Positions 3,067 to 33,916 are shown, counted from the first letter of the stretch. The stretch is 64,000 nucleotides of DNA from an uncultured Chloroflexia bacterium (GCA_963746845.1 CAVVCZ010000004.1:224001-288000); one strand, 5' to 3'. Notes: generated by a model from the sequence alone, not told the origin. Program-made: numbers and translations.

Positions 3067-4390
3067 GTGCCCCAGATTCGCCCGTTCCGTGCCCTCCGCT
3101 ATGCCCCGGAGACCGTCGGCGACCTCGCCCTGGTGGTCGCGCCGCCGTACGACGTCCTGTCGGCCGCGGACCGGCGTCGCCTGGCCGACCGAAGCGACCG
3201 AAACGTCGTTCGCCTGGACGCGCCGTCCGACGAGCTCGGCGACGCGGAAGACGATCGCTACCGGCGAGCGGCACGGACCCTCGCGGCGTGGCGGTCCGAC
3301 GGGACGCTCCACAAGGACCCGCGCCCGGCGATCTACGTGTACGAGCAGACGTACCGCGTCCCCGGATCGGGGAGCGGAGCGGACCCAGCGCGGGTTCTTC
3401 GCGCGGCTCCGGCTCGAGCCGCTCGAGCCCGGCTCGGGTGTGCTCCCGCACGAGCGGACGCTGGCCGCCGCGCGGGAGGACCGCTACCGCCTCCTCCGGG
3501 CGACCGGGGTCAACACCAGCCCGGTCGTCGGCCTGTACGACGACCCGAGCGGACGCGCGAGCGCGATCCTCGCGACGCTGGCGATGCCGGCCCCCGTGCT
3601 CGACGTCGTCGACGACGACGGCGTGCGTCATCGACTCTGGGTCGTCGAGGCCGATGGGCCGGCCTCCGGCGCGGTCGCCGAGCTCGTCGGGGTGGCGTCC
3701 GCGGCGCCCGTCACGATCGCCGACGGCCACCATCGGTACGAGACCGCGCTCCGCTATCGGGACGAGCGACGGATGAGCCGGTCATGCGAGGAGGACCCGG
3801 CGTTCGATTACCTGTTGATGCTGCTCCTCGAGACCACCGCCGAGCCGTTGACCGTCCTGCCGACCCATCGGGTCGTGCGCGGGCTCGGGGACGACGGCGT
3901 CGCCGCCCTCCGGGCGGGTCTCGACGAGCTCTTCGACGTCCGGCCGGCCGACCGCGAGGCCCTGTGCTCGGCGTTCGGTCCCGGTGCGGACGCGCCGGGC
4001 GGGCGGGGGCGGTTCGGGCTCTGGACGCGCGACGGCGGCGTCCTGCTCACCGCGCGCCGGACGGCCTTCGCGCCGCTGCTCGCCGCCGGCGGGTCCGCGC
4101 TCCGCGGGCTCGATGTCGTCCTGCTCGGCGCGGCGCTCGAACGGCTCGCCGGGATCGATCGCGAGGCCGTCGCCGTCGCCGACCGGATCGCCTTCACGAA
4201 GTCCGTCGAGGAGGCGCTCGACCGGGTCGACGGCGGCGTCGACGGGGCCGACGCCGCGTTCCTCCTCGAGCCGACCCCGGTCGAGTCGATCGCCGCCGTC
4301 GCCCGCGAGGGTGACGTGATGCCCCAGAAGTCGACCTACTTCTACCCGAAGGCCCTGACCGGCCTCGTCATCAACCCGCACGAGTGGTGA
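3067..4390 (+). CDS. DUF1015 family protein, split by a +1 frameshift near 3365-3385
   Basis: N-terminus MPQIRPFRALRY...VVAPPYDV in one frame; PHERTL, IADGHHRYETA and C-terminal MPQKSTYFYPK in the next frame. Confidence 0.88.
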
Positions 4391-4427
4391 GCCAGCCGAT
4401 GTCCGTCCCGACCCGAGCACCCCGCCG

Positions 4428-5307
4428 ATGACCGAATCCACGCCCGACCAGATCCTTGCCCGCGCCCAGGTCCCGTCCGCCAATGGCCGGCCCGTCCGCA
4501 AGGACGAGATCGAGCTGCACGACCGCGGGCTGTACATCGAGTCGTGGCTGCCCGAGCGACGCTCGCGGCGCAAGCCGCTCCTGTTCGTCCACGGCGAGCT
4601 CGCGGGCTCGTGGGTCTGGGAGCGCTATCTCGGCTTCTTCGCGTCCCGGGGCTGGGAGGGCCACGCCCTCAACCTCCAGAACCACCACTGGTCGCGGACC
4701 GCCGACCCGACCGAGCTGACGTTCCAGACGTACGTCGACGACGTCGTCGCGGCGTTGAACCGCCTCGGGCCGACGACCGTGGCGATCGGCCACGGGCTGG
4801 GCGGGCTGCTCATCCTCAAGGCGGCCGAGCAGGCACCGATCGGGGGGCTCGTCCTCCTCTCGCCGGAGCTCCCCGCCGAGCTGCGCGATCCGGCCCAGCC
4901 CCACGAGCTGCGCGAGGTGCCGGACGTGTACGGCCGTGGCCGGATCGGCTGGACGACGCTGCCCGAGAAGCTCCAGCGCGACCACCGGGACCTGACGATC
5001 GCCGACGTCCTCCGGATCCAGCATCTCCTCGGCCAGAAGCCGCACGAGAGCGGCCGGGCGCTGCGGACGGTCCTGTCCGGCGTGCCGGTCGACCCGCGAC
5101 CGTTCGCCGAGATCCCGCGGCTCGTCATCGGCGGCGGGCTGGACCGGATGGTCGCGCGAGCCGGACGCGGAGCGACTCGCCGACTGGCTCGGCGCCGAGT
5201 ACGAGCCCTTCGGGGCCCACTCGCACTACGGCCTGATCGTCGGGGAGCAGAGCCACCAGCAGGTCGCGGAGGCGATCCGCATGTTCCTCGAGACGCACCG
5301 GCTCTGA
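4428..5307 (+). CDS. Alpha/beta-hydrolase-fold protein, +1 frameshift near 5150-5162
   Basis: LLFVHGELAGSWVW and GHGLGG elbow; shifted frame continues EPDAERLADWLGAEYEPFGAHSHYGLIVGEQSHQQVAEAIRMFLETHRL*. Confidence 0.82.
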
Positions 5308-5382: not shown

Positions 5383-5459
5383 GCCGCATTCGTCTAGAGG
5401 CCCAGGACACCGCCCTCTCAAGGCGGAGATCACCGGTTCGAATCCGGTATGCGGTACCA
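5383..5459 (+). tRNA. tRNA-Glu (CTC)
   Basis: Cloverleaf: acceptor GCCGCAT/ATGCGGT, anticodon arm CCGCC-CTCTCAA-GGCGG, T arm ACCGG-TTCGAAT-CCGGT, encoded CCA. Confidence 0.97.
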
Positions 5460-7704: not shown

Positions 7705-7718
7705 CGAACGTCCGTTCG
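7705..7718. promoter_or_regulatory. LexA (Cheo-type) SOS box candidate
   Basis: Palindromic CGAAC-GTCC-GTTCG, intergenic, about 60 bp upstream of a TACCAT -10 at 7781-7786. Confidence 0.55.
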
Positions 7719-7751
7719 TGTGGACAAGTTCGTGGACGAGTTGGTGGACAA
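7719..7751 (-). promoter_or_regulatory. Three tandem DnaA-box-like 9-mers
   Basis: TGTGGACAA (7719), CGTGGACGA (7731), GGTGGACAA (7743) at 12-bp period; reverse complement of the first is TTGTCCACA. Confidence 0.5.
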
Positions 7752-7942
7752 ACCCCCTTCATCGACCGGCCCGTCGGTCCTACCATTGCGCTCCACCGGG
7801 CCGGCGAGAGTTCTCCGGGAGGGACGGAACCCGCGGCCGGTGCGACTCCACGGGGGCATCCCGCGGTCGGCTGATCCCGCCGACCGGTGGGTGGATGGTT
7901 CGTGCTGCCACGCGACGGGATCGACTGGAGGGTCGGCCATCG

Positions 7943-8398
7943 ATGGTTCACAGTAACGGCACCGCCCGAGCTGTCACCGAGCCGCTCGGCGCGGAAGCCG
8001 ACGCGTTGGAGTTCGTCCGCTTCTGCCATCGACGCAAGCACGTCGGCTGGCCCGAGCTCTATGACGAGATGTGCGCCGTCGCGGGTCGCGGCCTCTACCG
8101 GGGCTACGGCACTGACGAGCTCTCCGAGATCGGGATCGGCTTCGGCCTGTTCGAGATGCCGGCTCTGGCCGGCCTCGTGAGCCAGGTCGTCACCGAGGAT
8201 CAGGAGCGCCGTCGGCGCATCGCCGAGGTCCGACCGGTCGTCGTCGCCTCGTCCGAGAGCCAGCCGGTCGCCGAGCCCGGTGAAGCGCCCGAACCCCACC
8301 AGCCGGCGTCCCCAGACGTCGGACCCAACCGGGAGCCGGCCGAACGGGCCACCCCGGACCATGGATCGGTCAGGATCGCGGTGCCCGCCGGAGCCTGA
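7943..8398 (+). CDS. Hypothetical protein (151 aa)
   Basis: GGAGG upstream; globular N-terminal part (EFVRFCHRRKHVGWPELYDEMCAVAGRGLYRG) and Pro/Glu-rich tail; followed by a terminator. Confidence 0.75.
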   Translation: MVHSNGTARAVTEPLGAEADALEFVRFCHRRKHVGWPELYDEMCAVAGRGLYRGYGTDELSEIGIGFGLFEMPALAGLVSQVVTEDQERRRRIAEVRPVVVASSESQPVAEPGEAPEPHQPASPDVGPNREPAERATPDHGSVRIAVPAGA

Positions 8399-8434: not shown

Positions 8435-8473
8435 GAAGGGTCCTCGATTGGTCAGGATCGAGGACCCTTCTTC
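8435..8473 (+). terminator. Intrinsic terminator-like hairpin
   Basis: GAAGGGTCCTCGAT-N8-ATCGAGGACCCTTC followed by TTC. Confidence 0.7.
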
Positions 8474-8754
8474 ATGCCCGGGACCTCTTCATGGCTGTCG
8501 CGCCTCGGCCGGGCGCCGCCGGCCGTCGCCTTCCTCGCCGAATTCCCACGTCGCGAACAGCTTCCGCGGAAACCTCGCCGGATGTGCCTACGCCGGGAAT
8601 CCGGTCAGCAGCGCGCGGTCCGCTGCCCCGATCCGAGCGTGACGGGATCGCGCCTCCCGCCTCGCGGGCCTCGCCGTGTTCTCCCGGTGAGCATTCGGGG
8701 ACGGAGATGTGGCAGAGCCGGGCGAGGGGGCCGGGTGTTCGATCCGATCGGTCG

Positions 8755-8982
8755 TCAGGCCCGGATCCGTCGCCGCGCCATCTCCCCTTCGATCTGGCGC
8801 TCCGCCTCGACGTAGGTGTCGATCTGCTCGCGGATCTGGTTCGCCTCGGGGGTGTAGAGGTGAACCTGCTGCTGGAGGATGTACGACAACCGCCGGCTGG
8901 TCATCCGGACGTGATCCAGGTTCTTCATCAGGACCAGCGGATCCATCGCCGCCAGGTCGGACGGGTGGTACATCAGCTTCAT
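8755..8982 (-). CDS. Small hypothetical protein (75 aa, helical)
   Basis: Non-GC-biased protein composition; TAGAAT-N6-ATG start context. Confidence 0.8.
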   Translation of the reverse strand: MKLMYHPSDLAAMDPLVLMKNLDHVRMTSRRLSYILQQQVHLYTPEANQIREQIDTYVEAERQIEGEMARRRIRA

Positions 8983-13191: not shown

Positions 13192-13267
13192 GTCCCCGTA
13201 GCTCAGTGGACAGAGCAGCCGCCTTCTAAGCGGAAGGTCCCGCGTTCGAGTCGCGGCGGGGACGCCA
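13192..13267 (+). tRNA. tRNA-Arg (TCT)
   Basis: Acceptor GTCCCCG/CGGGGAC, D arm GCTCAGTGGACAGAGC, anticodon loop CTTCTAA, T loop TTCGAGT, CCA end. Confidence 0.96.
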
Positions 13268-23766: not shown

Positions 23767-24798
23767 CTACGCAGCCGCCGGTTCGTCGGTGGGCGACGCC
23801 GGTGTGCCCGCCCGGCCGGTCCGTCCCACGGGCTCCGCGGCCGGATGCTCCACCGACGGCATCCGGCTCCGCGCCAGGATGATCAGGGCCACACCGGCGA
23901 CGATGACGCCGCCCGCGACGAGCTGGACCGGCGACACGGACTCGGCAAGGATCAGCCAGCCGAGGAACACGGCGATCACCGGGTTGACGAACGCGTAGGT
24001 CGCGATCAGCGGCAGCGGCGCGTGCCGGAGCACCCAGGCGTAGGCGGTGAACGCGATCAGGCTGCCGACCGCGAAGAGATAGACGAACGCGGCGATCGAG
24101 GCGCCCGAGACGTCGGCCGGGTGGAAGGTCGCGAGCTCGCCCGACAGGACCGACACGATCGCGAGCACGAGGCTGCCCGACAGCATCTGCATGCCGGTCG
24201 TGACGAACGGGTCGCGCGGGAGGCGGGCGCGGTGCGCCGAGAACAGCGAGCCCGTGGACCAGGCGATCGGCGAGAGGATGAGGGCGGCCACGCCGGCCGG
24301 GTTGAGCGAGCCGTCGATCGCGATCCCGTGGCCGACCAGCAGGGCGACGCCGAACATGCCGGTGGCGATCCCGACGATCGCGACGCCGGGCAGCCGTTCG
24401 CCGAGGAAGACCCGCCCGAGCACGGCGATCCAGACCGGCATCATCGCGATCAGGACACCGGCGATCCCTGACGGGACCGTCTGCTCGCCCCAGGCGACCA
24501 GCCCCATGCCGCCGCCCATCAGGAGAGCGCCGATGATGAAGCTGTCGCGCCACTCGCGGCGGCTCGGCATGGGCACCTGGCCGCGCCGCAGGATCGCGAC
24601 GGCGGCGAGCATGACCGTTCCCGCGATCGCGAACCGGGCCGCCGCCATGACGAACGGGGGGATCGTCTCGATCGCGACCCGGATCCCGAGGTACGTCGAC
24701 CCCCAGACGACGTACAGGATCAGGATCGCGGTCCAGACGAGCACCGGCGACGCCGCGGTCCGGGGCAGGCTCACGCCGACGTCGGCCGTGGTTGGCAT
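23767..24798 (-). CDS. EamA/DMT family transporter
   Basis: LYVVWGSTYLGIR, TYAFVNPVIAVFLG; about 10 TM helices. Confidence 0.9.
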   Translation of the reverse strand: MPTTADVGVSLPRTAASPVLVWTAILILYVVWGSTYLGIRVAIETIPPFVMAAARFAIAGTVMLAAVAILRRGQVPMPSRREWRDSFIIGALLMGGGMGLVAWGEQTVPSGIAGVLIAMMPVWIAVLGRVFLGERLPGVAIVGIATGMFGVALLVGHGIAIDGSLNPAGVAALILSPIAWSTGSLFSAHRARLPRDPFVTTGMQMLSGSLVLAIVSVLSGELATFHPADVSGASIAAFVYLFAVGSLIAFTAYAWVLRHAPLPLIATYAFVNPVIAVFLGWLILAESVSPVQLVAGGVIVAGVALIILARSRMPSVEHPAAEPVGRTGRAGTPASPTDEPAAA

Positions 24799-24876
24799 AG
24801 TCGGCTGGTCCAAAGTACGAGGAGTGTACGACGCCCGCGCCGACAGCGCTACCCCCGTCTCGACCCGACTGCGTTC

Positions 24877-24989
24877 GTCGCGCCCGGGCGTCGAGGGCAA
24901 GGCGGAGCCGAGCACCGGAGCGAGCGGGCTTGAAGGCCCGTGAGCGAGGAGCAGAGGCTCCAACGCAGCCATCGGCGTTCGGGCGCGAC
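24877..24989 (+). repeat. Structured intergenic repeat element, copy 1
   Basis: Nested stems (18-bp outer stem with G-U pairs) and loops shared with copy 2 at 33258-33377. Confidence 0.8.
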
Positions 24990-24994
24990 AGCCT

Positions 24995-25795
24995 TCAGGC
25001 GACGGCGATGTTCCCGATCGGGCGGCAGTGGAGACACGGGCGGTAGCCGGCAGAGGATGCCGCCTTCGCCGATCCGAACGTCACGAGGTGGCGCTCCGTG
25101 ACCCGTCGCGCATCGCGGCAGGTCGGCATGCAGTAGATGCGCGTCGTGTCCGAGCCGAAGTAGCGGATCCCGGCCCGCGCCAGCGTCTCGAGCTCGTCCG
25201 GATCGGCGCCCTCCTCGGCGAGGATCGTCCGCTTGTTGTCCGGCCCGCCGAGCGAGTACTGGCCGATCGTCCCGTCGCTCCGCACGACGCGATGGCAGGG
25301 CACGATCAGCGGCACCGGGTTGTGGCCCAGCGCCGTTCCGACGGCCCGGACCGCCTTCGGTCGCCCGATCTCGGCGGCGATCCAGCCGTACGGCCGGACC
25401 TCCCCACGCGGAATCTCGAGCGCCTTCATCCAGACCGCCCGCTCGAACTCGGTCGAGCCGCGCAGGTCGAGGTCGATCCGGTTGTGTCGGTCGCCCGCCA
25501 GCCGTCGCCCGATCTTCCGGGCGAGGTCGTCCGGCAGCGTGTCGCGCCGGCGGGCGACGCGGCCCGTCCGGGCGTGGAAGCGGGTCTCGAAGGCCGCATC
25601 GTCGACCGCCTCCTCGACCGCGGACACGCCCCGGGCGTTCCAGGCCACGCGGAGCGGGCCGACGGGCGAGTCCATGACGGCATAGTCGTCCGCCAGGCCG
25701 ACCGCGACCAGCGTCGCGTGGGCGAGGCCCGGAGGTGCCGGCTCGCGGAGGCCGGCGAGCGAGGCCTCCAGCGTGGGTTCGTAGGTGTCGGTCAT
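24995..25795 (-). CDS. ogt: Methylated-DNA--protein-cysteine methyltransferase with C-terminal Ada metal-binding domain
   Basis: IVPCHRVV active site, AVRAVGTALGHNP; C-terminal IYCMPTC...AGYRPCLHCRP. Confidence 0.92.
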   Translation of the reverse strand: MTDTYEPTLEASLAGLREPAPPGLAHATLVAVGLADDYAVMDSPVGPLRVAWNARGVSAVEEAVDDAAFETRFHARTGRVARRRDTLPDDLARKIGRRLAGDRHNRIDLDLRGSTEFERAVWMKALEIPRGEVRPYGWIAAEIGRPKAVRAVGTALGHNPVPLIVPCHRVVRSDGTIGQYSLGGPDNKRTILAEEGADPDELETLARAGIRYFGSDTTRIYCMPTCRDARRVTERHLVTFGSAKAASSAGYRPCLHCRPIGNIAVA

Positions 25796-26364
25796 GCGGG
25801 GATCTCCTCGCGCTCGTGCCGCTCGGCGGCGAGGAGCGCTGTGCGCAGGGCGGCCAGTCCGCGGTGGACATGGGCCTTGACGGTGCCCTCGGGCCGGCCG
25901 GTCGCCTCGGCGATCTCGGCGTACGACAGCCCGTCGACGTGGCGGAGGACGACGGCCGTCCGCTGGGCCGGACTCAGACCGGCGAGCAGACGTGCCCAGG
26001 TCTCCCGTGCGTCGCGACGGGTGAGCGGGTCGTCGATGGGCTCGGCGCCGGGATCGAAGGCCAGCTCGGTGGTCGGAACCCGCCGGACGCGGGCGCGGTT
26101 GCGGCCGGCGTTCAGCAGGATCGTGGTGAGCCAGCCGCGGAGGCGCAGCTCGCGGATCCGGGCCGGCGGGTACGTGGCGAGCGCTCGGTAGGCCCGGACG
26201 AAGCAGTCCTGGACGAGATCCTCCGCCTCCTGCCGATCCCCGCCGGTCCGCCAGGCGATCGTGAAGAGGCGGTCCTGGTGGGCGAGCACGAGCGCCTCGA
26301 ACGCCCCGTCGAGGTCGGTCGCGAGACGAGCGGCGAGCGGTGCATCCGCTGTGGGTTCGTGCAT
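25792..26364 (-). CDS. ECF sigma-70 factor
   Basis: EAEDLVQDCFVRAY (sigma2), LSYAEIAEATGRPEGTVKAHVHRG (sigma4); ATGA coupling to ogt. Confidence 0.92.
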   Translation of the reverse strand: MHEPTADAPLAARLATDLDGAFEALVLAHQDRLFTIAWRTGGDRQEAEDLVQDCFVRAYRALATYPPARIRELRLRGWLTTILLNAGRNRARVRRVPTTELAFDPGAEPIDDPLTRRDARETWARLLAGLSPAQRTAVVLRHVDGLSYAEIAEATGRPEGTVKAHVHRGLAALRTALLAAERHEREEIPA

Positions 26365-26374
26365 CACATCCGAT

Positions 26375-26403
26375 TCAACACCCCCGTCCGACCCGGAGTT
26401 GCA
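26375..26403 (-). promoter_or_regulatory. ECF-type promoter (autoregulatory candidate)
   Basis: Minus strand TGCAAC-N17-TGTTGA just upstream of the ECF start. Confidence 0.5.
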
Positions 26404-26460
26404 CCCCGGCGACGCCGTCCGTCCGCCGAGAGCGGCATCCGTGCATGGCACAATCGGCCG

Positions 26461-27486
26461 ATGGGGCGAGCCGATCGGTTCGAGCTGCTGGCGGCGTCGG
26501 TCGCGGGGTTCTACGAGAGCTGGGCCATCTACCTCGGCCTGGAGCTCGGGCTGTTCGCCGCGATCGGTGATGCGGGGCCCGCGGGCATCGCGCCCGATGC
26601 GCTCGCGACCGCGACCGGTTGCCGGCCGGAGCCGGTCCGGGCGTGGGTCCGGGCGGCCCATGCCGCCGACCTCGTCATCCTCGACGGGGATCGGGTCCGG
26701 CTCCAGGACGACGTCGTCTCGGTGCTGCTCGACGACACGCACCCGGAGTTCCTCGGCGGCCAGTTCGTCGTGGCCGTCGTGTCGAGCCTCGACTACGCCG
26801 GTCTGGCCGAGTTCTTCCGGACCGGCCGGACGACGGGCGAGCGGCCGCCGCGCTTCCATCGGGCCATCGAATCGGTCACCGTCCAGGACATCGCGGTCTT
26901 CTTCCAGGAGGGCCTCGCCCAGCTCCCGGAGCTCGTCGCGACGCTCAGCCGGGGCGCTCGGGTCCTCGACGTCGCGTGCGGCGGCGGCAAGTGGCTGATC
27001 GCGATCGCCCGGCGCTTCCCGGCGACCGAGCTGGTCGGCGTGGAGTACGAGCCGGACTCGGTCGCGCGGGCGATGCGCCACGTGAGCGAGACCGGGCTCG
27101 GGCCACGGATCCGGATCGAGCCGCGGACGATCCCGGACATGCCGTTCCGTGAGCAGTTCGAGCTCGTCTACCTGCAGGACGCGCTCCACGAGCTGCCCGA
27201 GCCAGTCGAGTCGCTCCGGGCGTCATGGACGGCGGTCGCGCCCGGCGGCACGCTCGTCGTCCTCGAATGGTGCCTGCCGGAGGACACGGCGGACGGCCAG
27301 ACGCTCCAGGCCCAGCTCCTCTGGGGGATCCACATCGACGAGCTGTACCAGGGGACCCGGATGGAGACCCATTCCGGGTTCGCCCGGATGTTCGCCGCCG
27401 CCGGCGTCCCGGCGCCGACCGTCATCGACCTGCTGTCGGGCGCGACCCTGTTCGTCGCTCAGCGCGACGGCGGATCACCGCGCTGA
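26461..27486 (+). CDS. Class I SAM-dependent methyltransferase with N-terminal wHTH
   Basis: VLDVACGGG, LQDALHE; CACAAT-N6-ATG start context. Confidence 0.88.
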   Translation: MGRADRFELLAASVAGFYESWAIYLGLELGLFAAIGDAGPAGIAPDALATATGCRPEPVRAWVRAAHAADLVILDGDRVRLQDDVVSVLLDDTHPEFLGGQFVVAVVSSLDYAGLAEFFRTGRTTGERPPRFHRAIESVTVQDIAVFFQEGLAQLPELVATLSRGARVLDVACGGGKWLIAIARRFPATELVGVEYEPDSVARAMRHVSETGLGPRIRIEPRTIPDMPFREQFELVYLQDALHELPEPVESLRASWTAVAPGGTLVVLEWCLPEDTADGQTLQAQLLWGIHIDELYQGTRMETHSGFARMFAAAGVPAPTVIDLLSGATLFVAQRDGGSPR

Positions 27487-27493
27487 GCCTCGC

Positions 27494-27901
27494 CTACTGC
27501 ACGACGACGGTGTAGTCCTTCATCTGCGTCGGATGGATCGCACAGTGATAGGTGTACGTGCCGGGCGCGGTGAAGACCAGCATCGCGGTGGCCCCGCCGG
27601 CGATCGTCTTCGTGTCGCACGTGCCGCTGTCCATCGTCGCGCTGTGCGGCGTGCTGCCGTCCTGGTTCGACCAGGCGACGACGTCGCCGACCTTCGCCTG
27701 GACCGGCTGCGGCGCGAACTTGAAGTCCTTGATCGTGACGGTCGTGGCCGCGGCCCCGGCAGGCGCCGCGGCACAGGCCTGCGCTCCGCCTCCGCCGCCG
27801 GCCACGGAGGGCGCCGCAGCCGACGGCGTCGCCGCGCTGCTCGAACACGCGGCCAGCATCAGGATGGCAGCCAGGGCAGGAAGCACGGTGAGACGGCGCA
27901 T
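27494..27901 (-). CDS. Cupredoxin/plastocyanin-like lipoprotein
   Basis: Lipobox LAAC; PHSAT and YHCAIHPTQM type-1 copper ligands. Confidence 0.88.
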   Translation of the reverse strand: MRRLTVLPALAAILMLAACSSSAATPSAAAPSVAGGGGGAQACAAAPAGAAATTVTIKDFKFAPQPVQAKVGDVVAWSNQDGSTPHSATMDSGTCDTKTIAGGATAMLVFTAPGTYTYHCAIHPTQMKDYTVVVQ

Positions 27902-28014
27902 GACGGAGTCCTCCGGGAGGACCGGGCGACCGATGTGAAGCCGCTCGGATTGGGGCAGATATCGCATCGTACGCCCGGCCCGTCGGGGCGGTTTCTCGCG
28001 GGTATCGTTCGGCC

Positions 28015-28902
28015 ATGGTTGCCGAGGGCTCCCCGCTCCTCGCCCCGCCGAATGGCCGGCGGCGGCCCGCCGAGTTCTCGGCGTCCGACATCCGCTGGCT
28101 CGCGTGGCACGAGGCGCGCTCGCACGCGCTGATCGGCCGCGAGGTCCGGGACCTCGGCGACGGGTGGCTCCTCCACGATCCCACCGATCGAGAGCCGTTC
28201 TGGAACCGCCTCGCGGGCATCGCCTGGCCCGCCGAACCGGCCGCGTTCGACGCGCGTCTCGCGGAGATCCTCGCCCTGTTCGCCGGTCTCGACCGGATCC
28301 CCCATCTCTGGCCGTTCCCGGGCTTCGACGACCCGCCGGACCTCGTGGATCGGCTCGTCGCGTTCGGGTTCGAGGACCACGGGGGCGGCCTGATGATGGC
28401 GCTCGATGTCGATCGGGTCTCGGCGGATGCGATCGTCCTGCCGGACGCCGATGGCCGGCAGGTGTCGGTGGAGCGCGTCCATCGTGTGGCGGGCATCGAC
28501 GCCGAGGTCGCCGCCCGGGCCATCACGGACGTCCTCGTGACCTCCTTCGCGGTCGAGCCGGAACGGCGGCTCGCGATCGAGCTGGAGACCGTGCTCGGCC
28601 TCGAGACCGAGCCATATCACGCGATCATCGTCCGCGTCGACGGGCAGCCGGCCGCCGTGGCGCGAAGGACGTCGTTCGCCGGCGGGAGCTACCTCTCGTC
28701 GATCGGGACCGTTCCCGAGCTGCGCGGGCTGGGTCTCGGCCGTCTCGCGACCTCGCTCGCGATCGTCGACGCGATCGCGGACCGCTCGCTGCGGATCTAC
28801 CTCGGGGTGTTCGAGGACAACGACGTGGCGCAGCGGCTGTACGAGTCCCTGGGCTTCGAGCGGGTCGGCGGGGTGAACCCCGATCTCCTGCTGCGGCCGT
28901 GA
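28015..28902 (+). CDS. GNAT N-acetyltransferase
   Basis: IGTVPELRGLGLG, AQRLYESLGF. Confidence 0.88.
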   Translation: MVAEGSPLLAPPNGRRRPAEFSASDIRWLAWHEARSHALIGREVRDLGDGWLLHDPTDREPFWNRLAGIAWPAEPAAFDARLAEILALFAGLDRIPHLWPFPGFDDPPDLVDRLVAFGFEDHGGGLMMALDVDRVSADAIVLPDADGRQVSVERVHRVAGIDAEVAARAITDVLVTSFAVEPERRLAIELETVLGLETEPYHAIIVRVDGQPAAVARRTSFAGGSYLSSIGTVPELRGLGLGRLATSLAIVDAIADRSLRIYLGVFEDNDVAQRLYESLGFERVGGVNPDLLLRP

Positions 28903-29396
28903 GCGGTGCCGACCAGGCCGGCCGGGTCGCGAACGAGCCGTCGGTCCTGGCCGGGCTGACGACGCTGGCGACGATCGTCGCGACCGTCGATCTCGAACGA
29001 GCCCTCGCGGATCTCGGCGAGCCGGCATCCGGGGTGGACGCCGTGTCGGCGATCGACGACCCGCATCTCGGGGCGGGCGTCGTCGTCGTGGACGCCGATC
29101 TCGACGGATGGATCGCCCTCGCCGAGCCCCGGACCGAGGGCCGCCTCACGGCGTGGCTTGCCCGGAACGGCGAAGGGATCGCTGGCCGCTACCTGGCGGC
29201 GGCGACCGGCGGACCGGAGGCGCCCGGCGCACCCGACGCGCTCGACGCGTTCCGGTCCCGGGCGGCGGCCGCCGGCGTCGACACCAGCCGCGTGGAGGTG
29301 GGCCCGTTCGGTCGATCGGTCCTGGTTCTCGCCGGTTCGGTCACCGGTCCGCACCTCGTCGTGGCCGAGCGGCGGACGCTACCATCGCGGCCATGA
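28899..29396 (+). CDS. Hypothetical protein (VOC/glyoxalase-like fragment)
   Basis: GTGA and ATGA overlaps; IALAEPRTEGRLTAWLARNGEGI resembles a VOC motif. Confidence 0.6.
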   Translation: MSGADQAGRVANEPSVLAGLTTLATIVATVDLERALADLGEPASGVDAVSAIDDPHLGAGVVVVDADLDGWIALAEPRTEGRLTAWLARNGEGIAGRYLAAATGGPEAPGAPDALDAFRSRAAAAGVDTSRVEVGPFGRSVLVLAGSVTGPHLVVAERRTLPSRP

Positions 29397-29833
29397 CCGA
29401 ACGCAACCCGACCACGATCCGTCCGGCCACCGCCGCCGATGCGGAGCGGATCGCCGCGCTGTTCACCGACGAGGGCTATCCGGCCGGGCCGAGCGACATC
29501 GTCGAGCGTCTCGCGCGCTTCGACTCCCCGCACTCACGGGTCCTCGTCGCCGATCACGACGGTGAGGTCCTCGGTTTCGTCGCCGTCCACGCCCTGCCCC
29601 GGTTCGAGCACTCGGACCGGATCATCCGCGTCATGGCCCTCGTCGTCGACGCCGCGGTCCGCGAGCGAGGGATCGGCCGGCTCCTGATGGAGGCGGCGGA
29701 GGATCTCGGCCGGGAGGTCGGCGCGGCATTCGCGGAGGTCACCGCGGGTCATCACCGTCCCGACGCGCGCCGCCTGTACGAGGAGATCGGCTACGACGGC
29801 ACCGTTGCCGCCTACCTCCGGAAGCGGCTCTGA
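29393..29833 (+). CDS. GNAT N-acetyltransferase
   Basis: LVVDAAVRERGIGRLLM, ARRLYEEIGY. Confidence 0.9.
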   Translation: MTERNPTTIRPATAADAERIAALFTDEGYPAGPSDIVERLARFDSPHSRVLVADHDGEVLGFVAVHALPRFEHSDRIIRVMALVVDAAVRERGIGRLLMEAAEDLGREVGAAFAEVTAGHHRPDARRLYEEIGYDGTVAAYLRKRL

Positions 29834-29870
29834 GCCCAGCGCCGACGATCGTCCCTGGCGCGGCGGACCG

Positions 29871-31220
29871 ATGACGGCCTTTCCGCGTCTGCGGCTGCGC
29901 GACACCGCGATCGATCTGGTCGACCTGCCGTGGGAGGCGGCCCTGGCCGACTGGCCGGCCGAGACGCTCGACTTCCGACATGTTCCGGTCGGCCCGTCGC
30001 GGCACCTCGTCCGGTTCCTCGCCGCGGGCGGCGTCCTGTACGCGCTGAAGGAGCTCCCGCTCGGGCCGGCCCGCCGGGAGTACCGCGTCCTCCTCCATCT
30101 CGAGGGCCTGCGCCTGCCGACCGTCGAGGCGGCGGGGATCGCCGAGGACCCGTCGGCGGATCGGGCGATCCTCGTGACGAAGTTCCTGCCGCACTCGCTC
30201 CAGTACCGGCGGCTGATGATGCGGCTCCCGCCGACGAGCGTGACCTACCGCGACCGGCTCCTCGACGCGATGGCCTTCCTCCTCGTCGACCTCCACCGCA
30301 CCGGCGTCTTCTGGGGCGACTGCTCACTCGCCAACACCCTGTTCCGCCGCGATGGCGACCGGATCCAGGCGTACCTCGTCGACGCCGAGACGAGCGAGGT
30401 CTTCCCGGCGCTGTCCGATGGGCAACGCGCCTACGACCTCGAGATCCTCGTCGAGAACGTCGCGTTCGGCCTGGCCGACCTGGCCGCGATGCAGGGCTGG
30501 GACGGGGAGTTCGACGAGTCGATCGCGGCCGCCGAGCGGGTCCGCGACCAGTACGGGCAGGTGTGGTCGCTGATCCATGACGAGCCGATCCTCCAGCCTG
30601 GCGACCGCCAGGCGATCCGGAGCCGCGTGCGGAAGCTGAACGAGCTGGGCTATTCGGTCGACCTGGAGGTCGACCCCGACGCAGCGGACGGACGGGTCCG
30701 CCTCCGGATGGGGGTGACCACGCGTCGCTTCCACGCCCGTGCGCTGGAACGGCGGACCCGGATCCGGGCGCTCGAGGGCCAGGCCCGGATGCTCCTCAAC
30801 GACCTCAACGAGTTCGAGGCCTGGAATGCCTGGCACGACGGTCACCCGTCGAGCCCGGAGGACGCCGCCGACCGATGGCTCCGCGAGGTCTACCGTCCGA
30901 CCCTCGCCCGGATCGCCGCCGCGGTCGGCCCGGATCGCGACCTCGTCCAGGCGTACTGCGACGTCCTGGAGGAGAAATGGTACCTGTCCGAGGGCGCCCA
31001 ACGCGACGTGGGCCTCGCCGAGGCGATCGACACGTACCTGGCGCTCGGTGCCCCGGCCCCCGAGACCGGCCGACGGGGCGACCCGACCGACGCCCTCGAC
31101 CCGGTGGAGCTGGATCTCGTCGAGCTGGGGTCGTTCCGGGACGAGCCGGCCGAGCCGCTCGTGGCGGGCGGAATCCCCGACGACGACCCGGACGAAGACG
31201 TGGCACCATCGGGCCGGTGA
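29871..31220 (+). CDS. DUF4032 domain protein (LPS-kinase-like fold)
   Basis: GPSRHLVRF, YALKEL, FWGDCSLANTLFRRD, AYLVDAETSE, EKWYLSE. Confidence 0.85.
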   Translation: MTAFPRLRLRDTAIDLVDLPWEAALADWPAETLDFRHVPVGPSRHLVRFLAAGGVLYALKELPLGPARREYRVLLHLEGLRLPTVEAAGIAEDPSADRAILVTKFLPHSLQYRRLMMRLPPTSVTYRDRLLDAMAFLLVDLHRTGVFWGDCSLANTLFRRDGDRIQAYLVDAETSEVFPALSDGQRAYDLEILVENVAFGLADLAAMQGWDGEFDESIAAAERVRDQYGQVWSLIHDEPILQPGDRQAIRSRVRKLNELGYSVDLEVDPDAADGRVRLRMGVTTRRFHARALERRTRIRALEGQARMLLNDLNEFEAWNAWHDGHPSSPEDAADRWLREVYRPTLARIAAAVGPDRDLVQAYCDVLEEKWYLSEGAQRDVGLAEAIDTYLALGAPAPETGRRGDPTDALDPVELDLVELGSFRDEPAEPLVAGGIPDDDPDEDVAPSGR

Positions 31221-32158
31221 ACCAGGGATCGGGGGCCGTCGCGGACGCCGTCATCCGCGTCGAGAACCTGCACAAGGCCTACGGCGACACGCGCGCCGTC
31301 GACGGCGTCAGCTTCGAGGTCGGGGCGGGAACGATCTTCGGCCTGCTCGGGCCGAACGGTGCCGGCAAGTCGACCACCGTCGAGATCCTCGAGGGGCTGC
31401 GCGAGCCGGACAGTGGCACCGTCAGCGTCCTCGGGATCGACGCCGTCCGCGACGCGGACGCCCTGCGCGCCCGGGTCGGCGTCTCGCTCCAGACCGCGGC
31501 GCTGTACCCGAAGCTCACCGTCACCGAGGTCCTGACCCTGTTCCGCGGGTTCTATCCATCGGGCCGGACGCCGAACGAGCTGATCGAGCTCATGGACCTC
31601 GGCGAGAAGCGCTCGACGCGGACCCAGAACCTGTCCGGCGGGCAGCGGCAGCGCCTGTCGGTCGCCCTGGCCCTCGTCAACGACCCCGAGCTCGTGTTCC
31701 TCGACGAGCCGACGACGGGCATGGATCCAGCCGCCCGGCGGGCGCTGTGGGACGTCGTCCTCGGGTTGCGCTCGGCCGGCCACACGGTGCTCCTGACGAC
31801 GCACTACCTCGAGGAGGCCGAGGTGCTGTGCGACCGGGTCGCGATCATGGACCACGGCAGGATCCTCGAGGAGGGCACGGTCGAGGAGCTCGTCAGCCGC
31901 CGGTTCAAGGAGCGGGCCGTCCGGTTCGACCCGATCGACGCGCTGCCGGACGCGCAGCTGACGGCCATGCCGGGTGTCACCCACGTCAAGCGCGAGGACG
32001 GGGAGGTGCTCGTGTACACGGCGGACGTCGCGGCAACGATCGGCGCCGTGATCGCCGCCGCCGAGGCCGTCGGCGTCGAGCCGGCCAACCTCGGCGTGCG
32101 GCGGGCCACCCTCGAGGACGTCTTCCTCGAGCTGACCGGCCGGGCTCTCCGGGACTAG
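31217..32158 (+). CDS. ABC transporter ATP-binding protein
   Basis: GPNGAGKST, LSGGQRQR, FLDEPTTG. Confidence 0.95.
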   Translation: MNQGSGAVADAVIRVENLHKAYGDTRAVDGVSFEVGAGTIFGLLGPNGAGKSTTVEILEGLREPDSGTVSVLGIDAVRDADALRARVGVSLQTAALYPKLTVTEVLTLFRGFYPSGRTPNELIELMDLGEKRSTRTQNLSGGQRQRLSVALALVNDPELVFLDEPTTGMDPAARRALWDVVLGLRSAGHTVLLTTHYLEEAEVLCDRVAIMDHGRILEEGTVEELVSRRFKERAVRFDPIDALPDAQLTAMPGVTHVKREDGEVLVYTADVAATIGAVIAAAEAVGVEPANLGVRRATLEDVFLELTGRALRD

Positions 32159-32166
32159 CCGGACCG

Positions 32167-33249
32167 ATGCGCGCGCTCCTGCTTCTGACCGAGGCGAACA
32201 TCAAGAGCTTCACGCGCGACCGTGCGGCGCTCTTCTGGACCCTGGCGTTCCCGCTGATCTTCGTCGTCCTCTTCGGGTCGATCTTCTCGGGCGGCAACAA
32301 CGACCGAACGATCGGGTTCGCCGACCTGGACGGCAGCGCGACTTCGCAGAAGCTGGCCGACGCGTTCGCCGCGGTCGACGGGGTGAAGCTGGAGACGGGC
32401 GATCCGACCGAGCTCCAGGCGAAGATGAAGGACGGCCAGCTGTCGGCGGTCATCGTCGTCCCGAAGGGGTTCGAGGCGACCGTCACGTCGAAGACGGCCC
32501 CGGCCCAGGTGACGATCTACACCGATCCGAGCCAGAGCGCGGCCGATGGCGCCACCCGGCAGCTCGTCGGGTACGTGCTCGCCGCCGTGAACCAGCAGGC
32601 GGCCGGCGTGCCGCCCGCGGTCCTGCCGACGTTCGCGGCGATCCAGACGAACGACCTCTCGTTCATCTCGTACCTCGTGCCGTCGATCCTCGGGATGTCC
32701 CTCATGCAGGTCGGGATCTTCGCCGCGATCCCGCTCGTCGCCGACCGCTCGAAGCTGATCCTCAAACGCCTCCAGGCGACGCCGCTGCGGCGCTGGCAGC
32801 TGGTCGGCAGCAACGTGCTGATGCGCCTGCTGATCGCCGTCATCCAGACGATCATCATCGTCGGCGTCGGGGCCACGTTCTACGGCGTCGAGATCGCGGG
32901 GTCGTGGTGGATGATCTCCGGCCTGATCCTGCTCGGGTCGGTGACGTTCATCGCCTTCGGCTACGTCATTGCGTCCTTCGCCAAGACGGAAGACGCCGCG
33001 AACGCGATGACGAGCGCCGTCCAGTTCCCGCTGATGTTCCTGTCGGGGACGTTCTTCCCGATCGCGGCGATGCCGGACGCCCTCAAGGCGGTCGCCCGGA
33101 TCCTGCCGCTCACGTACCTGAATGACGCCCTGCGGCAGGTCATGGTCGACGGGACGCCGTTCGCGCCGCTCTGGTTCTGCGTCGCGTTCCTGTTCGCCTG
33201 GCTCTTCGGCTGCCTGGCCATCGCCGCCCGCTACTTCAAGTGGCAGTAA
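32167..33249 (+). CDS. ABC-2 type permease
   Basis: LFWTLAFPLIF, LKRLQATPL, PLMFLSGTFFP. Confidence 0.92.
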   Translation: MRALLLLTEANIKSFTRDRAALFWTLAFPLIFVVLFGSIFSGGNNDRTIGFADLDGSATSQKLADAFAAVDGVKLETGDPTELQAKMKDGQLSAVIVVPKGFEATVTSKTAPAQVTIYTDPSQSAADGATRQLVGYVLAAVNQQAAGVPPAVLPTFAAIQTNDLSFISYLVPSILGMSLMQVGIFAAIPLVADRSKLILKRLQATPLRRWQLVGSNVLMRLLIAVIQTIIIVGVGATFYGVEIAGSWWMISGLILLGSVTFIAFGYVIASFAKTEDAANAMTSAVQFPLMFLSGTFFPIAAMPDALKAVARILPLTYLNDALRQVMVDGTPFAPLWFCVAFLFAWLFGCLAIAARYFKWQ

Positions 33250-33257
33250 CCGAAGAA

Positions 33258-33377
33258 ACGCCCCTCCAGGGGCGCCGAGGCCAAGGCGGCGGCGAGCACC
33301 GGAGCGAGCGCACTTCAGGGTGCGTGAGCGAGGAGCGGAGTCGCCAACGCGGGCATCGGTGCATCCTGGAGGGGCGT
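33258..33377 (+). repeat. Structured intergenic repeat element, copy 2
   Basis: Near-identical loop sequences to copy 1 with compensatory stems; about 21-bp outer stem; lies between convergent genes. Confidence 0.8.
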
Positions 33378-33916
33378 CACCAGCGCTCGTCGTGGACGAT
33401 GTCAGCGAGGGCGACCCGCCCGCCGGCCTTGTTCGGCCGGGTGAGGTCGTCGGGGTCCGCCGGGTAGCCGAACGAGAGCAGGTACTCGCACCGGTGGTCC
33501 TCCGGGTAGCCGAGGAGCTCACGGGCGAGATCGTGCTCGTAGACCGTCGCCGGGACGCTCCCGATCCCGAGCTCCCAGGCGACCAGCATCATGTTCCCGG
33601 CGGCCATCCCGAGGTCGAACATCACCGAGAGCGGGCTGTCGGCGGCCGTCGGGTCGGGCGTCACGAGCGCCACCGCGACCGACGCTCCGGCGATGTGTCC
33701 GGCCCACGGCCCGACCGCCGCGAGCGCGCGCAGGTGGACCGGGTCCCGGCAGACGATGAAGTGCCAGCGCTGGAGGTTCTTCGAGCTCGCGGCTCGGCGA
33801 CCCGCATTGAGGATCCGGACGAGCTCGTCGGCCTCGATCGGGCGGTCGGAGAACCGCCGGATGACCCGCTTGTGCTCGACGGCGTCCCAGACCGACAGCG
33901 TGGGCTCGCCGTTCAC
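33377..33916 (-). CDS. Nitroreductase family protein
   Basis: KRVIRRFSDRPI, AASSKNLQRWHF, AGNMMLVAWELGIGS. Confidence 0.9.
   Translation of the reverse strand: MNGEPTLSVWDAVEHKRVIRRFSDRPIEADELVRILNAGRRAASSKNLQRWHFIVCRDPVHLRALAAVGPWAGHIAGASVAVALVTPDPTAADSPLSVMFDLGMAAGNMMLVAWELGIGSVPATVYEHDLARELLGYPEDHRCEYLLSFGYPADPDDLTRPNKAGGRVALADIVHDERW

Follow-up and report, generated by a model that had tools for sequence, protein, structure and literature searches.

A dispersed family of strand-polar hairpins with a conserved non-canonical core at gene ends of Chloroflexota and other uncultured bacteria

Introduction

Repetitive extragenic palindromes (REPs) are described in one account as extragenic palindromes of 20-40 bp with a GTAG or CGTC tag that stays unpaired, with head-to-head pairing of copies and a link to RAYT genes (PMC3733652). 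The same account places them mostly downstream of genes, between co-directional or convergent genes and sometimes in clusters, and states that they are thought to act single-stranded (PMC3733652). We analyzed a stretch of 64,000 nucleotides (nt) from an uncultured Chloroflexia bacterium (GCA_963746845.1 CAVVCZ010000004.1:224001-288000; this whole stretch is hereafter called the window), in which a preliminary description had pointed out two copies of an elaborate hairpin. Here, we report that these hairpins belong to a large dispersed family that is absent from Rfam 15, keeps a non-canonical core and folds more stably on one strand than on the other.

Other described systems share single features with the family. 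An attC site is an imperfect palindrome whose structure is conserved more than its sequence; it folds from the bottom strand relative to the preceding open reading frame (ORF) and starts near the stop codon. The attC core sites read RYYYAAC ... GTTRRRY, and the sites occur in arrays of promoterless cassettes. The PATE elements derived from IS200/IS605 have separate left and right subterminal hairpins with conserved cleavage tetranucleotides. MIRU, RPE, and Correia repeats are tolerated in operons or at gene ends, and MIRUs keep a fixed orientation to the flanking genes; we know of no report that any of these three families spans phyla.

Results

Two copies of one nested hairpin in the window

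Both hairpins were confirmed by folding energies, shuffling and exact core matches, and they share the same nested fold at the places where they had been reported. Their parts are as follows.

24868-24993, plus strand: copy 1, a complete member of the Chloroflexota subfamily, bounded by ACTGCGTTCGTCGCG...GGCGCGACAGCC (fold, model score, and ends matching 20 other copies with unrelated flanks)
24899-24904, plus strand: copy 1, module 1, 5' side, AAGGCG (near-invariant columns in the 125-copy alignment, outside the search pattern)
24910-24923, plus strand: copy 1, 5' core arm GAGCACCGGAGCGA (exact match; internal pairs backed by compensatory variants in other copies)
24924-24941, plus strand: copy 1, apical stem-loop closed by a conserved G·U pair (covarying stem pairs)
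24942-24952, plus strand: copy 1, 3' core arm GAGCGAGGAGC (exact match; G-C and tandem G·A pairing with the 5' arm)
24961-24966, plus strand: copy 1, module 1, 3' side, CAACGC (near-invariant columns, outside the search pattern)
33258-33377, plus strand: copy 2, a complete element with a different outer stem (fold, model score, and exact core matches)
33283-33288 and 33345-33350, plus strand: copy 2, module 1
33294-33307, plus strand: copy 2, 5' core arm (exact core match)
33308-33325, plus strand: copy 2, apical stem-loop
33326-33336, plus strand: copy 2, 3' core arm (exact core match)

The hairpin of copy 1 pairs from 24873 to 24992, within the sharp family ends at 24868 and 24993. As RNA, the plus strands of both copies folded into one common nested rod, with energies of -81.0 kcal/mol (copy 1) and -84.1 kcal/mol (copy 2) and z-scores of -8.2 and -8.4, respectively; none of 200 shuffled sequences folded equally well. 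The conserved rod was the minimum-energy fold of both copies under RNA parameters, with ensemble frequencies of 0.33 and 0.21, and the reverse strands were weaker (-63.4 and -72.0 kcal/mol). The 16-base and 13-base core words occurred without mismatch exactly twice in the 64 kb, at the two copies, and matches with 2-3 mismatches were at chance level in the window (8 against 4.6 expected and 8 against 6.25 expected). A covariance model built from 125 members of the family described below scored copy 1 at 119.4 bits and copy 2 at 96.8 bits, with the next match in the window at 16 bits.

A large dispersed family absent from Rfam

The preliminary description had spoken of a two-copy element, a number that proved far too low. 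A scan of species-representative genomes for the two core arms, with a gap of 14-26 nt between them, found at least 126 exact-core copies in at least 120 loci. By record title, among the matches listed, 93 loci belonged to Chloroflexota (including Limnocylindrales), 15 to Dormibacterota and 3 to Saccharibacteria. All loci come from metagenome-assembled genomes, and the rarer labels may be binning errors: among the matches listed, these were Eisenbacteria, Methylomirabilota, and Actinomycetes (2 loci each) and Verrucomicrobiia, Nitrosopolaris, and Sulfomarinibacteraceae (1 locus each). The Saccharibacteria copies were clearly distinct, with stems of their own and surrounding DNA of ~50% G+C.

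The element measures ~126 nt in Chloroflexota and ~180 nt in Dormibacterota. The subfamily of copy 1 comprises 21 copies of 125-133 nt with sharp ends and unrelated flanks, and in the Dormibacterota subfamily a further covarying stem is added on the outside, as is another symmetric module, CAGATG/CAGATG.

The proposal of a dispersed motif without an Rfam match was borne out. With Rfam 15, only two tRNAs in the whole window (plus-strand genes at 5383-5456 and 13192-13264) passed the gathering threshold and no family was assigned to the element; at E <=10 around both copies, the best matches reached 12.8, 12.3, and 10.8 bits against thresholds of 40-50. Eight loci spanning all subfamilies gave one tRNA and nothing else. 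No paper describing the element was found when the literature was searched by core word, by taxon and under the topics of repeats and RNA, tandem G·A pairs and terminators. The hairpins of the window are thus members of a large dispersed family, and we consider it highly probable that this family and its one-strand structure are real.

The conserved core is a helix of canonical and purine-purine pairs

The alignment comprised 125 copies, 123 from the loci and the 2 of the window, three locus copies with <42 nt of flank having been dropped. The 25 core bases are invariant in it by construction of the search pattern, but AAGGCG, CAACGC, and the apical closing G·U pair are conserved although they lie outside that pattern. 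The RNAalifold consensus contained 27 pairs, 20 of them with changes on both sides. The consensus cells were paired in 91.8% of cases compared with 72.4% in shuffles, and the covariation score was 0.467 compared with 0.144 in shuffles (reached by 0 of 500); it fell to 0.05-0.08 when the partners were slid by 1-3 columns. Of the 125 copies, 102 had G·U as the apical closing pair, 12 had A-U, and 9 had G-C.

A covariance-model search for relatives, which the preliminary description had named as a check, found further copies in the loci that lie outside the exact pattern. Some of these model-found copies, labeled by locus, carry compensatory changes in the core, from CC/GG to GC/GC in L070b and L035b and from GC/GC to GG/CC in L034b and L072b. 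Because these changes occur in copies that the pattern did not select, the core is a helix and not a set of loops; the purine-rich segments first taken for internal loops are really helices with compensatory changes within them. In our reading of the folds and variants, the core consists of a two-fold symmetric GAGCGA/GAGCGA unit with G-C and tandem G·A pairs in alternation about it, an A·A pair, and a bulged G. Core length ranged from 41 to 45 nt across copies, and the non-canonical modules were kept from Chloroflexota to Saccharibacteria while every stem was different. A likeness may exist between the 5' core arm and the 3' strand of the 23S sarcin-ricin loop, as well as between the GAGC repeats and a parvoviral Rep-binding element.

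A coding function of the complement was considered and rejected, since the length of the core varies and the stems covary, a pattern that keeps no frame intact. Words like the Shine-Dalgarno sequence, GGAG and AGGAG, occur on the purine strand of all copies, and the complement has CUCCU, which is like the anti-Shine-Dalgarno sequence (24910-24923 and 24942-24952 in the window).

Selection acts on the purine-rich strand

The preliminary description had proposed selection on a folded single strand, namely, the plus strand, which is the purine-rich one, and the larger alignment supports this. The purine strand was more stable than its complement in 118 of the 125 copies, by a mean of 10 kcal/mol, and it also had the advantage when the outer stems alone (108 against 15 copies) or the apical stem alone (106 against 15) were compared. 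Outside the core, the purine-strand folds contained 387 G·T pairs as against 25 isolated A·C, and 109 A·G as against 13 C·T; in the outer helix, G·U outnumbered A·C by 171 to 34. Mutational bias was rejected as the source of the G·T excess, since the known deamination biases would place G·T on the sense strand, opposite to what was seen. Under DNA parameters, a fold other than the conserved rod had the minimum energy, and the two window copies differed in their inner folds. This difference between the parameter sets weakly favors RNA as the folded form, as DNA parameters may treat tandem G·A pairs poorly.

The folding strand lies mostly antisense to its neighboring genes

The preliminary description had placed copy 1 between co-directional minus-strand genes and copy 2 between convergent genes, and gene calls and Pfam matches agreed with this. 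It had noticed neither the antisense position of the folding strand nor the orthologous positions across species reported here. The neighboring genes in the window are as follows.

23767-24813, minus strand: unnamed gene that lies opposite in strand to copy 1 and starts ~55 nt from the 5' end of that copy (codon-usage gene call; no Pfam family)
24995-25795, minus strand: Ada/Ogt-type methyltransferase gene (Pfam DNA_binding_1, 4e-31, and Ada_Zn_binding)
32167-33249, plus strand: ABC-2 permease gene on the same strand as copy 2, ending 8 nt short of it (Pfam ABC2_membrane_3, 1e-51; gene call)
33377-33916, minus strand: nitroreductase gene on the opposite strand to copy 2, its stop codon directly adjoining the 3' base of that hairpin (Pfam Nitroreductase, 2e-22; gene call)

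Copy 1 is thus flanked on both sides by minus-strand genes, with the stop codon of the Ada/Ogt gene 1 nt past its 3' end, and both stop codons that converge on copy 2 lie <=8 nt from the hairpin. In the region 25792-27486, open frames overlap on both strands; the minus strand encodes an ECF-type sigma factor (Pfam regions 2 and 4), and the gene caller also made a long plus-strand call over it.

Across the loci, genes were called with our own simple codon-usage caller trained on the loci, which are related to one another and not independent. The gene on the 3' side lay on the opposite strand in 61 and on the same strand in 16 of 77 cases, a rule that both window copies follow, and the gene on the 5' side was opposite in 52 and the same in 24. 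Between co-directional genes, the element was antisense in 40 cases and sense in 5; 19 pairs were convergent and 9 divergent. When 11 orthologous groups were collapsed, leaving 60 units, the split on the 3' side was 43 to 13 (p 7e-5) and that between co-directional genes was 30 antisense to 4 sense (p 6e-6). Pfam supported the strand of 66 of 74 genes on the 3' side. These are ordinary housekeeping genes (among them relA, radA-like, lexA, truA, rpsJ, rpsI, cytochrome b, aspS, lysS, mreB, purB, and gdhA). In two Saccharibacteria loci checked by hand, the element was antisense to both neighbors. In the Saccharibacteria locus L055 (3933-4086), the element lies within the last 51 codons of a TraG/VirD4-like ORF, on the opposite strand.

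An opposite-strand stop codon lay <=10 nt from the edge of the element in 29 of 62 cases. This position at gene 3' ends, with the great stability of the hairpins, is what would be expected of ordinary long terminators or mRNA-stabilizing hairpins that are similar by shared descent and lack specific recognition, and the family does resemble intrinsic or bidirectional terminators in placing a G+C-rich hairpin right after stop codons and also between convergent genes, as at copy 2. However, no U-tract was found on either side of the rod: the fraction of T was 0.20 in the first 12 nt that follow it and that of A was 0.17 in the 12 nt before its 5' edge, and no terminator-like site was called at either window copy. 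A canonical intrinsic terminator was rejected for this reason. The element is more elaborate than a terminator need be, as the preliminary description had remarked; unlike terminators, the family has stems far longer than needed, a core conserved across phyla, copies inside operons and the stronger fold on the strand opposite to the gene. Ordinary terminator-type hairpins, some with T-rich tails, stand beside family members just beyond the element in L009 and L054, at 3801-3833 in L034, and at 8436-8472 in the window, where the terminator of the gene at 7718-8398 precedes a probable decayed copy at 8492-8563 (described below). The neighboring genes therefore have terminators of their own. Taken with the conservation of the non-canonical modules amid stems that all differ, these results make the terminator or stabilizer explanation very unlikely.

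Where the element was antisense to both neighbors, the next start codon lay <=40 nt away in 19 of 41 cases, and both gaps were <=40 nt in 13; the complement must therefore be transcribed through. This raises a function in the mRNA complement itself, which would present a scaffold hairpin with C/U-rich internal loops after the stop codon, for Rho loading, as the site of a pyrimidine-binding protein or in stop-start translational coupling; the apparent preference for the other strand would then follow incidentally from selection for C-rich, G-poor transcripts. The tight spacing just described fits such a role, and C takes part in almost every mismatch of the complement (130 A·C and 120 C·U). However, a fold selected in the mRNA predicts G·U as its commonest mismatch and A·C as a rare one, and the reverse was seen, with the G·U excess on the purine strand. 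Moreover, the closing pair covaries among G·U, A-U, and G-C, and recognition of the Rho type would not need an invariant core of 25 nt. We therefore regard a function of the mRNA complement as improbable.

The element is retained at orthologous sites

Among the 78 loci whose neighboring genes were compared, 29 fell into 11 groups with homologous immediate neighbors in different species. The rpsJ-rplC spacer, of 133-169 nt, holds the element in seven species, where it runs from 1-4 nt after the TGA of rpsJ to ~15 nt before the ATG of rplC; such a filled spacer would also suit a role in the mRNA. The two flanking genes had third-codon identities of 0.745 and 0.657, and 79 of the 174 columns of the spacer were invariant. 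The outer stem in this spacer changes by compensation; partly by our own reading, three species show G·T in it on the purine strand and none shows A·C. Because a neutral core of 25 nt would not survive such divergence, the core is under selection in place, on the template strand of a ribosomal-protein operon. The presence of copies at orthologous positions in different species therefore indicates host-level retention rather than pure mobility.

Repeat-like dynamics and the comparison with mobile elements

The family also behaves as a repeat. In one assembly, near-identical copies occupy separate, unrelated loci (L030, L031, and L045), and head-to-tail arrays of two to three copies are common (L021, L031, L034, L037, L061, L070, L078, L096, and L099), although most loci hold a single copy. 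Half copies adjoin complete ones at L033 (4084-4211), L049 (3040-3169), and L037 (4214-4340), and in these only the 3' half, beginning with the apical stem, can be recognized. A single inverted pair was seen, in L035, with copies at 2214-2338 (plus strand) and 3959-4085 (minus strand), 1.6 kb apart, that bracket truA, rplM, and rpsI; of these copies, one lies sense after rplQ and the other antisense after rpsI. A REPtron-like arrangement was rejected there, the genes between the copies being these three.

The window probably contains a third, decayed copy.

8492-8563, minus strand: probable decayed copy with both termini kept and the central core deleted (reading of the termini and synteny with L034)

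The covariance model gave a weak match of 11.4 bits at 8520-8626 on the minus strand, and the locus is syntenic with L034, where the flanks are 77-79% identical and three intact tandem copies are found (3839-4215). We tentatively assign 8492-8563 to the family as a core-deleted member on a reading of its termini. An empty site, another check that had been proposed, was not found in clean form, as the sole syntenic locus found (5.5-10.8 kb of the window against L034) is rearranged and the window has this remnant there. The same comparison shows a conserved gene of ~75 codons with 88% nucleotide identity and inverted orientation (8755-8982, minus strand, in the window; 4258-4483, plus strand, in L034). 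A TAGAAT hexamer lies a few bases before its start codon in both genomes, a position that suggests a leaderless transcript of this gene.

These dynamics could reflect a selfish, non-autonomous element moving as single-stranded DNA (ssDNA) and mobilized by a hairpin-recognizing enzyme encoded elsewhere, of the HUH/RAYT type or a tyrosine recombinase, as for REP/REPIN or attC. The antisense bias would then result from purged sense insertions or from persistence where the active strand is rarely exposed. In addition to the scattered near-identical copies, the arrays and the half copies, this explanation is favored by the sharp conserved ends of the 21-copy subfamily, the core-deleted remnant where a relative has three intact copies, the presence of the family in distant phyla of different G+C content, and the position of the folded strand as the bottom strand relative to the upstream ORF, as in attC; it also needs no promoter.

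The preliminary description had likewise named mobilization by an HUH/RAYT-type enzyme as one possibility, for which we found no support in the DNA examined, and its proposed check for a linked transposase was negative there. No transposase, integrase, or reverse-transcriptase family recurred among 553 predicted neighboring proteins from 78 loci, the whole genomes not having been searched for an enzyme elsewhere. The largest cluster of neighbors consisted of ABC ATPases at varying distances, and nothing recurred beyond orthologous housekeeping sets. A linked gene was rejected, as the neighbors in Saccharibacteria (ABC/FtsX, TraG-like, and GyrB) and those of 74 other copies are diverse housekeeping genes. 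At the 21 sharp-ended copies, no target-site duplications, target consensus or conserved flanking tetranucleotide were found. A blastn search of plasmid and phage collections with three family members returned only chance fragments, with <=38% query coverage.

The features that define REPs are not those of the family. As dispersed intergenic palindromic repeats, its members resemble the REP, BIME, and REPIN elements (PMC3733652). Unlike REPs, with their 20-40 bp (PMC3733652), the element measures 125-133 nt between sharp ends (21 copies) and ~180 nt in Dormibacterota. No tag is common to the subfamilies: GTAG is absent, and the CGTC within TTCGTCGCG of one subfamily is a paired stem that other subfamilies lack. 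Furthermore, adjacent copies stand head-to-tail and not head-to-head or tail-to-tail, the conserved part is an internal non-canonical core and not an end tag, orthologous sites are retained across species, and no transposase is linked in the DNA examined. Unlike miniature inverted-repeat transposable elements, the 21 copies have no flanking direct repeats, and across subfamilies the interior is conserved whereas the ends differ.

The likeness to attC lies in strand and position, in that the folded strand is the bottom strand of the 3' neighbor in 61 of 77 cases and a stop codon lies <=10 nt away in 29 of 62. However, there are no R''/R' core sites, the conserved CAAC faces AAGGCG and not a GTT-type site, the core is a G·A zipper and not a set of extrahelical bases, the neighbors are housekeeping genes (rpsJ, rplQ, rpsI, relA, and lexA) and not arrays of cassettes, and no integrase was seen near the loci, the whole genomes not having been searched. 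Unlike in PATE, the whole element is one nested hairpin and has no conserved flanking tetranucleotide. What defines MIRU, RPE, and Correia repeats, as commonly described, is their sequence, small ORFs or terminal inverted repeats and not a covarying rod with invariant purine-purine modules. A core that stays conserved while its stems compensate, at 29 of 78 loci in orthologous positions, is also unlike a decaying passenger. Overall, we consider the selfish explanation rather unlikely.

Discussion

The reading we favor is that the family is a host-retained, strand-polar hairpin acting through the non-coding strand, as antisense RNA or ssDNA, to which we assign slightly less than an even chance. 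The purine-purine and G·U(T) pairs cannot be matched by stable pairs on the complement and would make the element polar, one strand zipping into a long rigid rod and the other forming short helices separated by pyrimidine loops. Hosts would keep the element at gene ends, where it often fills the spacer after the stop codon, with the folding strand usually being the template, that is, antisense. The mRNA would carry the weak complement, which could be read through, and the rod would form only when the non-coding strand is single-stranded, in an antisense or divergent transcript or in DNA opened during replication. A conserved host factor would recognize the invariant non-canonical core; we infer both the binding of a protein to the rod and its action.

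Within the favored reading, the active form is perhaps somewhat more likely to be an RNA made from the non-coding strand, which would act as a one-way block or cap for transcripts entering the gene from its 3' side. The RNA-type pattern of conservation and the energy-model result speak for it. For ssDNA read in replication or repair, which falls a little below an even chance as the active form, the repeat dynamics and the lack of any need for a promoter speak instead.

Several results weigh against the favored reading. No promoter travels with the element: the 120-nt stretches upstream of 120 copies contained only 16 TANNNT hexamers, a weak peak among them accounting for ~13 copies, and no promoter-like site was found near either window copy. 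The family is in this respect unlike an independently transcribed small RNA gene, which would have a promoter at a fixed distance, and the upstream flanks of copies of the same subfamily are unrelated. The missing promoter tells against the RNA form, as does the copy in the S10 operon, where steady antisense transcription is unexpected, and the absence of a U-tract adds to these points. A generic block would not need an invariant core, and in L035 and L005 a sense copy stands directly before truA, so that the sense orientation is not always blocking. Against the ssDNA form, the template strand is least often single-stranded, no enzyme is linked in the DNA examined and no replication-strand signal was detected, third-position GC skew being -0.114 for same-strand and -0.121 for opposite-strand genes in a weak test; on the same comparison, a replication-strand explanation of the orientation bias was rejected.

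At its broadest, the favored reading would define a new class of one-way nucleic-acid element, in which a G·A-zippered rod on one strand is kept on the template strand, at gene ends and in operons, by hosts from Chloroflexota to Saccharibacteria. A conserved factor would read it there, and the rod would serve to insulate in a polar manner against transcription that is antisense or divergent, or would be an ssDNA mark for replication or repair. We put this forward as a speculative proposal that is doubtful at present.

The family is uncatalogued, and no known repeat or RNA family explains it. Its covariance model provides a marker with which this occupant of many intergenic spacers in these genomes can be annotated, and the GAGCGA/GAGCGA module offers, in compact natural form, a helix confined to one strand. 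The finding raises the question of which conserved factor reads the G·A-zippered rod, as RNA or as ssDNA. Should the strand polarity prove functional, some of the uncultured lineages that are most abundant in soil (Limnocylindria-type Chloroflexota and Dormibacterota) would possess a widespread regulatory or chromosomal element that acts via the strand that is not the mRNA.

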